Both the position numbers and the translations under genes were made by a program. Below are positions 1,548 to 54,099 of a DNA stretch of 64,000 nt, piece after piece. The notes under the pieces were generated by a model. That model did no database searches and was not told where the DNA came from. It saw only the letters and a program-made list of their open reading frames with translations. The stretch is from an uncultured bacterium. GTDB taxonomy: Bacteria > Hydrothermota > UBA3072. The stretch is from assembly GCA_964476585.1 (NCBI GenBank), contig CAYZBF010000005.1:15882-79881 (forward strand), given 5' to 3'. Position 1 is the stretch's first letter. The number at the start of each line of letters is the position of its first letter.

Positions 1548-1734
1548 GAGAGGTAAAAGAAGCATAAACTTTCAAAAATTTAGTTTGTCACTGGGAATTC
1601 TATCAAATACCATTTGATAAATTTATATCTTTACTTATAATCTTTATCCACTAAAATATATTAAAATTAAAGGTTGTCCCAAGGTTGTATGATGATTATA
1701 AAAGAACCAATTTTGGACATAATGACCTTCAGCA

Positions 1735-1990
1735 GCAATGTTCGGACTTCCGTCCGATAAAGCCATGGTCAAATTCCCCAGCGAGGAATTTGCCATTCGC
1801 TCTCTCAGGCTCGCTCTCCTTGGAATACAAGTATTCCAAGCAACCATGCCCGCTTGCCTTCCGAGGGCGCTTTCCTGGACGGAAGCCCTCACCTACAAGA
1901 AGATTATTTGGTCTTTTAACCGAATGGGAGAGGGGGTTAGATCCCGTGTCAACCAACTTTGGGACAACGCCTAAAATTAATAGTATAGTC
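1735..1990. ncRNA. Candidate structured non-coding RNA, class not identified
   Basis: Local GC about 50% against about 38% background. Four mutually overlapping ORFs on both strands with R/P/S-rich, non-protein-like translations. 11/12 bp long-range helix, GGACTTCCGTCC (1752-1763) with GGACGGAAGCCC (1877-1888). Perfect 9-bp hairpin CTTGGAATA-caag-TATTCCAAG (about 1829-1850). Strand not determined. Confidence 0.35.
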
Positions 1991-2715
1991 TATCATACAA
2001 CTAATCTAAATATCTTCCCAGCCTGAAGGCGAATAGCTTTTAGCTATAAATCATACTGACTCACGACTGATGACCCATGACTAAGCTATGGGCGGTGGCC
2101 ATGGTCGAAATTGACATTCATTTTTTATTGTTTATATTCAAAATAAGGAGGTGTTATATTAAAGTTAGGGGTAGAGCAGCACATATATTACAGCGATTTA
2201 TAAAAGAGGATTTCGGGGAAGATAGTTTTATCAGGTAGATAAATTCAATTTCTCAAGAAGCACGTAAGGTTTACTCTTCTCGTATAATTATAGAAAAGTG
2301 GTATTCCCTTATAAAGGTGATTGAAGAACCTACTAGAAAGATGTGTGAGGTGTTTTACGAGGGTGATCTAAAGGGAGCCTGGGAGGTAAGTAAATTTAGT
2401 GCCAAGTGGTTATGAATGAGAAAGACAAAGCCATTCTTAGGATGACTGAATTCCCAGAGGCAACTGATATTGTTGAGTATCGTATTTTGGGCTGGATGGA
2501 ACGTTCATTAGAAATTTGAGGGTGCAGGAATATAAAGATTGTTATCACGAAATCGCTAACCAGAGGGGATCCTTATACTGAATTTTCAGGGAGCTGGGAA
2601 TATTAGTGTGAGAAGATTGTCATATGTTGATTCCTCTTTAGCGCGCTAGGTTTCATCTGAGGAAGTGTAGATTTCTTTGACTTGACATATCCAGGGTTAA
2701 TTCTAATATGGTTAT

Positions 2716-13300: not shown

Positions 13301-13455
13301 TTCTTTGCGAACTTTGCGAGAAATTAAAAGGGGAGTGGGTATTTTACACTTCTTGCCCCGTTAGATATGAAATTATCTAACGGGGTGAACATTCTTCATT
13401 TTGCATTGAACAATCCCCTTGACTTTGTTAACAAATCCATTATTCTTACCCTGCT

Positions 13456-24877: not shown

Positions 24878-25061
24878 TTCTCATTGATAAATAGTATTTA
24901 TATTATGTCAAGACAGAAAAATGTTATCTTTGTTTATTATCACTATACACAAATATAAATATATTTATTAAATCTACATTTATCCATGGTTAGAAGTGAT
25001 TGGGTATTGTATATTTTACATTTTAAATTTTTCATTCTTCATTTTGCATTATACTATCCCC

Positions 25062-25090
25062 TTGACATAATCTCGTTCCGATTTTAATAT
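25062..25090 (+). promoter_or_regulatory. ffs promoter (TTGACA-17-TAATAT)
   Basis: CCCCTTGACA at 25062-25067 and TAATAT at 25085-25090, about 7 nt before the SRP RNA 5' end. Confidence 0.6.
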
Positions 25091-25096
25091 AAGATT

Positions 25097-25369
25097 GCCA
25101 GTCGTACTAAGCGGGGAGTTAGCGGTGCCCTATACCTGTAATCCGCTATAGCAGGGCCGAATGCTTGCACAAGCTTATCGTTTTTTATTATGGGCTTCAG
25201 GAGAAGGTGATGAAATTTGGGTCCTTCATAGGAGTGTACCTTAAACCCCGTCAGATCCGGAAGGCAGCAGCGGTAAGAGGATTTCATTCCTGATGGAGGG
25301 TTGCCTAAATGGAGCTTTTCTTCGGTCGTACCGATAAGGGAAGATTTGCAAAGCAAGCTGTACGACTGG
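25097..25369 (+). ncRNA. ffs: Signal recognition particle RNA, long form with Alu domain (Bacillus scRNA-like)
   Basis: 5' GCCAGUCGUACUAAGCGGGGAGUUAGCGGUGCCCUAUACCUGUAAUCCGCUAUAGCAGGGCCGAAU nearly matches the B. subtilis scRNA 5' Alu domain. Domain IV CCCCGUCAGAUCCGGAAGGCAGCAGCGGUAAG. Termini GCCAGUCGUAC / GUACGACUGGU pair. Sits directly upstream of dnaX-ybaB-recR as in Firmicutes. Confidence 0.9.
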
Positions 25370-27819: not shown

Positions 27820-27893
<74 letters not shown>

Positions 27894-35471: not shown

Positions 35472-35718
35472 CTTGGAAATCAATAGTATTCTACTCGATG
35501 GAAGAACCGGAGACAGTAAAAAGTTGAATAGTTGAGTAGTTGAATTGTTGAGTTGTTAGCCCCGCTATCAAACATATCATTACAAAACCATTTAACTATT
35601 TTTCTACTCAACCATTAACTAATTTACTTTACGCCATTTACGAGAGAAAAATGGAAGGTGGGTGATAACAAGCACCCTTGACAAATTATTATGCCCCGTT
35701 ATCTTACTGGTCGAATGT

Positions 35719-35790
35719 GGCTCCGTCGTCTAATGGTGAGGACATCACTCTTTCAAGGTGAAGATAGGGGTTCGATTCCCCTCGGAGCTA
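35719..35790 (+). tRNA. tRNA-Glu (TTC)
   Basis: Acceptor GGCUCCG/CGGAGCU, D arm GUCU-AAUGGUGA-GGAC, anticodon arm UCACU-CUUUCAA-GGUGA (anticodon UUC), T arm AGGGG-UUCGAUU-CCCCU, discriminator A; -35 CCCTTGACA at about 35678. Confidence 0.85.
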
Positions 35791-35799
35791 TAAAAATAC

Positions 35800-53834: not shown

Positions 53835-54099
53835 CGGTTAATAATATACATAATCATACAGGGAACACAAGAATGGTCAAAGATCATGTATATTCAATGC
53901 AAAATGAAGATTGTAAAATGCAAAGTGTAAATTGCCGCCCACCTCTAATTTTTTGCTAAACTCACAAAGAATGCAAAGAAACCAAGAAATAAACGGTGTG
54001 TTGGGAATAGATTTTAATTTTTCATTTCTCAATTTGCAATTTTCACTTTTCATTGTAGCGAAGCTACTATATATTTGTAATTGAAACTAAGGGGGTATT

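Follow-up and report, generated by a model that had tools for sequence, protein, structure and literature searches.

A GC-rich island in an uncultured bacterium as the probable cargo of an ISH6-type MITE, one copy of a widespread structured element

The GC-rich island at positions 1735-1990 of the analysed stretch (hereafter the window, 64 kb of DNA from an uncultured bacterium) very probably belongs to a mobile element, an ISH6-type MITE at 1670-1971 whose cargo is one copy of a widespread, strand-specific and structured element that is predicted to be an RNA. Anatomy and comparison with related elements show this 302-bp stretch to be a putative non-autonomous DNA transposon of the ISH6 family, and at the level of sequence the island is its cargo, a structured RNA-like module. 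A covariance-model match together with covariation shows that the predicted module is a member of a widespread, strand-specific and covarying structured family.

Much of what the initial annotation described was recovered, while its reading of the island as a possibly lineage-specific sRNA was not. The island itself is real: its GC content is 0.51 at 1701-1900 and 0.475 at 1801-2000, whereas the flanks have 0.26-0.38 (0.26-0.34 immediately upstream and 0.30-0.37 downstream). The four overlapping ORFs with non-protein-like translations are present as well (Table 1), with no credible Pfam match among all four, and a protein homolog over the island, named in the initial annotation as one finding that would speak against an RNA, was likewise missing from the Pfam results. 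A degraded protein-coding gene or small ORF might be suspected from these four overlapping frames of 75-113 aa and from gene debris nearby (a methyltransferase fragment at 803-1027), but it is an extremely improbable explanation given the lack of Pfam matches, homologs that differ by hairpin-sized indels rather than by multiples of three, and substitutions that follow base-pair covariation.

Anatomy of the MITE and its ISH6-family relatives

Two features overlooked in the initial annotation frame the element, namely an outer inverted repeat (I1, 1659-1692 / 1949-1982, with cores GGTTGTCCCAAGGTTG and CAACTTTGGGACAACG) and a perfect direct repeat of 8 bp (TAAAATTA, 1662-1669 and 1972-1979). The terminal inverted repeats (TIRs) are 23-24 bp long, and the element as a whole is a degenerate palindrome that aligns to its own reverse strand (nhmmer, E=5e-6). 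With a size of 302 bp it has no transposase gene, and the ISH6 transposase as a tblastn query had no match in the window. Matching TIRs, an AT-rich target-site duplication (TSD) of 8 bp and a small, transposase-free body together characterize it as an ISH6 MITE. In determining TSDs, the element start was taken 3 nt outside GTTGTCCC, and the register of the window copy (1670-1971) was set by hand.

Table 1. Coordinates of the putative MITE, its predicted structured cargo and the overlapping ORFs in the window
Feature	Position	Strand	Basis or detail
Left target-site duplication TAAAATTA	1662-1669		read from the sequence; identical to 1972-1979
Left terminal inverted repeat AAGGTTGTCCCAAGGTTGTATGAT	1670-1693	+	arm of I1; core GTTGTCCCAARGTTGKWTGA recurs at ISH6 IS ends
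Spacer arm, partly complementary to 1894-1948, extending the palindrome	1694-1743		inverted repeat I7, 1699-1711 / 1906-1918
Whole RNA-like unit	1740-1893	-	5' GGUGAGG, P1, three-way-junction core, P1, 3' UCCGAAC
Outer stem P1, 3' strand, RNA sense GGACGGAAGUCC	1744-1755	-	I3; 12/12 with 1877-1888 including one G·U
Conserved core (full-length R1 match)	1752-1878	-	Pa, Pb, tandem G·A, GC/GC step, loop GGGCAUGGU/GA, Pc, Pd
Hairpin Pd, UGGCAAAUUCC-UCGCUGG-GGAAUUUGACCA, invariant loop UCGCNGG	1766-1795	-	model match and covariation
Variable hairpin Pc, CUUGGAAUA / UAUUCCAAG	1819-1840	-	I11
Invariant internal loop GGGCAUGGU	1843-1851	-	columns invariant or nearly so in 96 distinct members
Outer stem P1, 5' strand, RNA sense GGGCUUCCGUCC	1877-1888	-	I3 and minus-strand fold
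Right terminal inverted repeat (reverse complement GGCGTTGTCCCAAAGTTGGTTGA)	1949-1971	-	arm of I1; ISH6-end matches
Right target-site duplication TAAAATTA	1972-1979		read from the sequence; register as in related elements
Apparent remnant of a second, truncated MITE end, ATAGTATAGTCTATCATACAAC	1980-2001	+	similarity to L064 and L058
ORF overlapping the island (75-113 aa for all four)	1644-1892	-	
ORF overlapping the island	1685-2026	+	
ORF overlapping the island	1729-1956	-	
ORF overlapping the island	1738-1974	+	

The assignment to the ISH6 family comes from the ends. A pattern derived from the two arms in the window, GTTGTCCCAARGTTGKWTGA, was scanned against JGI metagenomes and matched 49 contigs, eight of which carry two inverted TIR copies 1.5-1.8 kb apart. 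Between the inverted TIRs of the sampled full-length elements (L027, L047, L049) lies an ORF of 452-456 aa that corresponds to the ISH6 family transposase (NCBIfam NF041731, E 2e-129 and 9e-139, with a weaker Pfam Transposase_mut match), and by tblastn an ISH6 transposase adjoins the TIR in more than 20 contigs. Seven further contigs have TIR pairs of MITE size (92-554 bp). The 8-mers flanking these elements are AT-rich and identical at 8/8 positions in L027, L036, L048, L058, L060 and the window, and at 7/8 in L023, L057 and L064, and ISH6 elements have been described to duplicate an AT-rich 8-mer target, AANATNTT (Guérillot et al., PMC3942029). The same authors report the family as mainly archaeal with one bacterial member, and as described mostly from haloarchaea (PMC3942029), whereas the hosts found here are WOR-3/Stahlbacteria bacteria and sediment metagenomes, which extends this little studied family well into bacteria.

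The window element resembles ISH6 insertion sequences and their MITE derivatives (prokaryotic Mutator-like, p-MULT 2) in its TIRs and in the 8-bp AT-rich target duplication, but differs from the insertion sequences in its small size and missing transposase. Two of the related short elements (L036 and L059) are plain internal-deletion derivatives of the IS, whereas the middle of the window MITE is a foreign structured module with no IS remnant. A 92-bp mini-MITE (L058) has the ends and sub-terminal sequences of another MITE, L064, minus its RNA-containing middle of about 210 bp. The full-length ISH6 elements have no structured module either, so the core is not needed for transposition by the ISH6 enzyme.

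Taken together, an ISH6-family transposase (Mutator-superfamily DDE), supplied in trans, would have recognized the 23-24-bp TIRs and inserted the MITE into an AT-rich intergenic site, duplicating the 8-bp target. The left TIR tip of the window copy is AAG rather than GAG/GGC and its inner right TIR has diverged, so this copy may be immobile. Directly after the right TSD follows ATAGTATAGTCTATCATACAAC, which agrees at 20/22 positions with the sub-terminal right end of L064 and resembles the mini-MITE L058; from this similarity, 1980-2001 seems to be what is left of a second MITE end of ISH6 type that was truncated. A repeat search inside the 64-kb window found no second copy of the element, the covariance model described below has one significant match there, and the metagenome scan found no second copy of the window's exact subfamily. 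Related RNA-bearing MITEs are present at one other locus of the window's own metagenome sample (L060) and in a Stahlbacteria MAG (L157), while a third locus of that sample (L034) has the same MITE end but is cut off at the contig end.

Fold, covariation and strand of the cargo

The region folds far better than expected from its composition. For 1660-1990, none of 100 shuffled sequences folded as well on either strand (z -5.6 for the plus and -5.3 for the minus strand). Within 1738-1895, the minus strand reached -74.3 kcal/mol (z -6.4) and the plus strand -60.8 kcal/mol (z -5.0), which makes the minus strand more stable by 13.5 kcal/mol. The long-range helix that the initial annotation placed at 1752-1763 / 1877-1888 exists and pairs at 11/12 positions on the plus strand, yet its 5' arm is 1744-1755; on the minus strand the same arms pair at 12/12 positions including one G·U. 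They belong to an inverted repeat (I3) with arms at 1744-1763 / 1869-1888 that are 80% complementary over 20 nt. The perfect hairpin noted earlier was confirmed and is located at 1819-1840 (inverted repeat I11).

We derived a consensus structure from 49 non-redundant family members, excluding the window, on a MAFFT alignment that was not fitted to any structure, and RNAalifold independently recovered the same helices from an earlier and wider MAFFT alignment (55 sequences including the window). A covariance model (R1, 123 positions) built without the window sequence and searched against the window with the cmsearch filters off matched 1752-1878 on the minus strand over its full length (positions 1-123 of 123, 82.9 bits, E=1.8e-30), while the next best match in the 64 kb scored 11.5 bits. 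Across the 100 genome loci listed, R1 gave 98 matches at E<1e-3, with family scores in a range of about 60-110 bits and at most three copies per 8 kb.

Covariation is strong in the unfitted alignment, where 79.4% of cells pair compared to 61.3% after shuffling (reached by 0/500 shuffles) and the covariation score is 0.428 compared to 0.155 (0/500), with slid controls at 0.08-0.17. Changes on both sides occur at 24 of the 32 pairs. The model-fitted alignment gave a score of 0.413 compared to 0.137, a value biased towards the structure because that alignment was fitted to the model. The consensus is a three-way junction with a closing stem Pa, a helix Pb followed by a tandem G·A and a GC/GC step, an asymmetric GGGCAUGGU/GA loop, and the hairpins Pc and Pd. 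The core spans about 125 nt, or about 155 nt including the closing stem, and contains some 35 invariant nucleotides; its four helices are rich in compensatory changes. Across the family, the tandem G·A columns hardly vary. Pd (helix 5) has 96% of its cells paired, with double changes at six pairs. Pc is the variable hairpin, with both-side changes at seven of eight pairs across the family and equivalents such as CUCCGAU/AUCGGAG in L064 and L057 and UUUAUGAUUUCC/GGAAAUCAUAAA in L048. The end motifs GCGAGG...CCGAGC are family-wide and appear as GUGAGG...CCGAAC in the window copy. When we searched for pseudoknot partners of two variable loop positions, there was no convincing mutual information and only extensions of Pb and Pd surfaced.

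Among non-Watson-Crick cells at paired positions, G·A/A·G outnumber U·C/C·U (213 vs 71) and G·U/U·G outnumber A·C/C·A (82 vs 48). This asymmetry and the better minus-strand fold point to the minus strand as the folding strand; single-stranded DNA likewise forms G·T wobble and G·A pairs, which means that RNA and ssDNA cannot be told apart by this asymmetry. The earlier view of an unclassified structured RNA appears reasonably well founded as far as it concerns a structured, RNA-like element, whose helices have compensatory changes in about 100 homologs. Probably, the module functions as a minus-strand transcript of the window, and its invariant loops would probably offer a surface for binding or tertiary contacts with a conserved factor of the host or the element.

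No Rfam 15 family accounts for this structure. Rfam 15 returned nothing at the island at the gathering score over the whole 64-kb window and nothing at E<=10 over 1500-2300, which is the Rfam check proposed in the initial annotation, and ARAGORN predicted no tmRNA at the island. The earlier statement that the island is unlike RNase P, tmRNA, 6S, SRP and riboswitches agrees with this absence of Rfam 15 families. Twelve further loci of the family had no Rfam 15 match either, and a typical copy had none at E<=10. The window's true SRP RNA lies elsewhere (bacterial large SRP RNA, 25102-25365, 139 bits), which fits the island not being SRP, and tRNA-Met and tRNA-Glu are located at 27820-27893 and 35718-35791.

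Several specific candidates were considered and rejected. RNase P was suggested by the minus-strand string GGAAGUCC, which had no Rfam match and proved to be the P1 stem. The genomic HDV ribozyme, which we take to share the strings GGCAUGGU and CCUCGCUGG with the module, was dismissed since these strings are 50-70 nt apart in the module and no HDV-type Rfam match was found; the consensus is a plain three-way junction with no nested P1/P1.1/P2 pseudoknot and no strand left for P2/P4 after the closing stem, and we regard the likeness as a coincidence. Hammerhead and other ribozymes, riboswitches, 6S and Y RNA had no Rfam match at E<=10. Guide or transposon RNAs (TnpB/IscB omega RNA, IS110 bridge RNA, retron ncRNA) were rejected on the lack of a constant protein neighbour among 102 copies of the family, a cis-regulatory role on the lack of orientation bias, an intrinsic terminator after the unit on the lack of T-run asymmetry, and a phage association on zero matches in viral contigs.

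A widespread family and its possible ways of spreading

The MITEs L064, L057 and L048/L060 share the GC-rich middle of the window element on the minus strand, including conserved strings and covarying hairpins. A scan for the core (AGCGGGCAYGRTT-N45-75-TTCCTCGC) in one genome per GTDB species returned at least 119 stretches, compared to about 30 expected by chance according to our own estimate. Among the matches listed, 102 (100 loci) also carry an independent GGGGAA just after TTCCTCGC. The taxa among the matches listed are Aminicenantes (with many contigs per MAG), Omnitrophota, WOR-3, Stahlbacteria, Krumholzibacteriales, Desulfaltia and Planctomycetia, along with copies labelled as Thermotogae, Parcubacteria/Patescibacteria, an Actinobacteria MAG and 'Eubacteriales' TPA bins. 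Automatic labelling may have gone wrong in some cases, given that several 'Eubacteriales' copies are almost the same as those of Aminicenantes. The module often occurs in several copies per genome among the matches listed, and the family comprises at least 100 copies in MAGs of many phyla, which contradicts the lineage specificity proposed before. A conserved 3' extension, GGGGGTGAAYCNCGACAGGACCCG, was seen in 13 of the 102 copies (e.g. L073, L112, L120, L121, L141, L153, L167, L175 and L185); it is a hairpin with an AGGACCC loop downstream of the module and is absent from the window copy. We found no description of the motif in the literature, and a name for it from uncultivated phyla may exist outside the sources searched.

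The genomic surroundings of the copies are diverse. ORFs within 2.5 kb of the 102 copies contain no dominant family, the sampled clusters being unrelated housekeeping genes, and no reverse transcriptase was seen near the sampled copies. Family copies show no orientation bias relative to neighbouring genes and neither excess nor asymmetry of T-runs downstream of the module. Promoter-like matches at the element are weak and lie in AT-rich sequence, and 2.9 million viral contigs contain zero copies. The units around the core differ between lineages. In Krumholzibacteriales, the copies are units of about 360 bp ending in GGAGTTTCCCCAA...TTGGGGAAACTCC, which resembles an ISH6-type end, and in Aminicenantes they are palindromes of about 250 bp with unrelated ends and apparent short duplications. 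The WOR-3 MAG JAGLZA01 has four diverged copies with no TIRs whose stems are kept by compensatory changes, and the 'Eubacteriales'-labelled copies lack TIRs as well. Riding in MITEs is thus not the module's only way of spreading, given the many family copies with no recognizable TIRs. No target duplication was found around the TIR-less copies.

Our preferred reading is that the module is a selfish or passenger stable RNA, with a role at the DNA level, or an RNA element that moves independently, as possible readings. In the first of these two, the three-way-junction core would act as DNA, i.e. as an extruded cruciform or folded single strand in transposition or replication; it might for example bind a protein or serve as a priming signal and thereby help the MITE to move or to be tolerated, and there would be no functional RNA. 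This would suit a degenerate palindrome of which both strands fold far better than shuffled sequences, a core that sits within TIR- or palindrome-bounded units in at least three lineages, and the missing terminator signal, clear promoter and orientation bias to genes. We nevertheless consider it unlikely. Full-length ISH6 elements with the same ends have no core, and DDE transposition of the Mutator type is not known to involve a single-stranded intermediate. Furthermore, the conserved G·A mismatches and the 3:1 asymmetry of G·A vs U·C point to one folding strand, and diverged paralogs within one MAG keep their helices via compensatory changes.

In the second, the core would be an autonomous-like selfish RNA, for example a small ribozyme or a retro-mobilized RNA, that invaded an ISH6 mini-MITE secondarily as one of many landing sites. 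In favour of this, the mini-MITE L058 has the ends of L064 and no RNA-containing middle of about 210 bp, many copies are TIR-free, the same core has unrelated ends in Aminicenantes and ISH6-like ends in Krumholzibacteriales, and its invariant unpaired nucleotides resemble catalytic or ligand-binding cores. However, neither a reverse transcriptase nor another constant partner is found nearby, the TIR-less copies have no target duplication, no known ribozyme family matches, and judging by the consensus structure the topology is unlike an HDV-like double pseudoknot or a hammerhead core. This makes an independently mobile RNA quite unlikely.

Under the preferred reading of a selfish or passenger RNA, the module appears to spread packed in MITEs whose ends are matched to the locally available transposase, in a manner that might be a DNA-mobilized counterpart of SINE or Pack-MULE cargo. 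Tentatively, and with less confidence than for the MITE and its structured cargo, we propose that the cargo might represent an undescribed and widespread class of functional structured RNA under purifying selection, with numerous copies in individual genomes of Aminicenantes, Omnitrophota, WOR-3/Stahlbacteria, Planctomycetota, Krumholzibacteriota, Patescibacteria and others, and moved in MITEs with locally working ends. Such a bacterial DNA-mobilized 'SINE' may be catalytic or protein-sequestering.

MITEs of this type are known in kind, and what differs from established concepts is the three-way-junction core that the cargo shares across phyla. Pack-MULEs, the eukaryotic non-autonomous Mutator elements, likewise have Mutator-superfamily ends around captured unrelated cargo, although in our case capture is presumed; the host here is prokaryotic, and in place of gene fragments the element carries a small structured RNA-like module that phyla have in common. 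Bacterial repeats such as ERIC/IRU, Correia (NEMIS), BOX, RUP and REP/BIME are also short, multi-copy, intergenic and imperfectly palindromic, and are sometimes bounded by TIRs or TSDs. Once transcribed, such repeats form stable hairpins, and the module reaches a density of several copies per 8 kb. Yet these repeats each stay within a single genus or family and are in essence long hairpins, whereas the module forms a three-way junction, has about 35 invariant nucleotides and is found in MAGs of many phyla with different ends. Eukaryotic SINEs and retrozymes are comparable as selfish repeats with a structured RNA module as their conserved part, but they move via RNA and reverse transcription, while the window copy has the DNA-transposon hallmarks of TIRs and an 8-bp TSD.

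MITEs are usually seen as featureless palindromic debris, and searches for structured RNAs in GC-rich intergenic DNA usually discard repeats. Here, the putative MITE cargo has hallmarks of functional RNA, i.e. invariant nucleotides, covarying helices and conserved non-canonical pairs. The module is common to uncultivated phyla with few characterized ncRNAs, and no Rfam 15 model finds it. If expressed, it would represent a new large RNA family and clearly exemplify the horizontal spread of an RNA module through exchanged transposon ends. In practical terms, annotators can use the R1 model to label such repeats, or mask them, in MAGs, whose assemblies they probably interrupt.

The insertion site and the surrounding locus

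The window corresponds to JGI metagenome contig Ga0315549_1001437. The gene adjacent to the element encodes a membrane protein of 117 aa with homologs named Candidatus Stahlbacteria or WOR-3. None of 18 neighbourhoods of these homologs contains a homolog of the element. In a MITE-free relative (L003), the upstream flank aligns as far as the left duplication and the homology ends there, which identifies the element as an insertion. Downstream, the locus of the relatives is rearranged, and an empty site is therefore seen on the left side only. The initial annotation had proposed conservation at the homologous locus of related genomes as a test for its RNA; the element is absent there because it is mobile, and that test would have misled.

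A single-copy, lineage-specific small RNA gene, as originally proposed, would be compatible with a GC-rich island in an AT-rich genome, its strong fold and the missing Rfam match. It is nevertheless very unlikely in view of the IS-family TIRs and the TSD, the absence from orthologous loci of relatives, and the at least 100 homologs in many phyla with several per genome. What was taken for a stand-alone gene instead appears as cargo inside a TIR-bounded and TSD-flanked ISH6-type MITE.

Upstream of the MITE lies a near-consensus sigma-70 promoter (TTGATA-16-TATAAT, 1614-1641, plus strand) that is conserved in the MITE-free L003. Since the MITE begins about 20 nt downstream of it, plus-strand transcripts would run through the antisense of the module. 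Further upstream, a 74-aa ORF at 803-1027 represents part of a class-I SAM methyltransferase (Methyltransf_25, E=3e-8). In relatives, the 117-aa gene is accompanied by an intact methyltransferase gene of 225-227 aa, and the window further lacks a 710-aa DsbH-like gene found in L003; the region around 803-1027 is decaying or rearranged. Between the MITE and the 94-aa/rpe/guaA genes, about 700 nt (2000-2700) contain only ORFs of 32-53 aa and are probably gene debris. Contigs of several relatives (L016-L020) stop 400-800 nt past the homolog of the 117-aa gene, and intergenic DNA of L015 and L009 is rich in short tandem or interspersed repeats such as CAGAACCCAGAACC and AATTAACCAATTAACC. Together, the repeat-rich intergenic DNA and the contig ends suggest repeat-driven assembly breaks in the lineage of these relatives.

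Elsewhere in the window, a 34-nt element, CATTCTTCATTTTGCATTnnACnATCCCCTTGAC, occurs twice (13390-13423 and 25033-25066, 91% identity) and ends in the -35 motif TTGAC. At the second copy, this motif at 25061 is followed by 17 nt, TAATAT and then the start of the SRP RNA, and an inverted partial copy is located at 53896-53931. This sequence is probably a shared strong-promoter or UP-like element.
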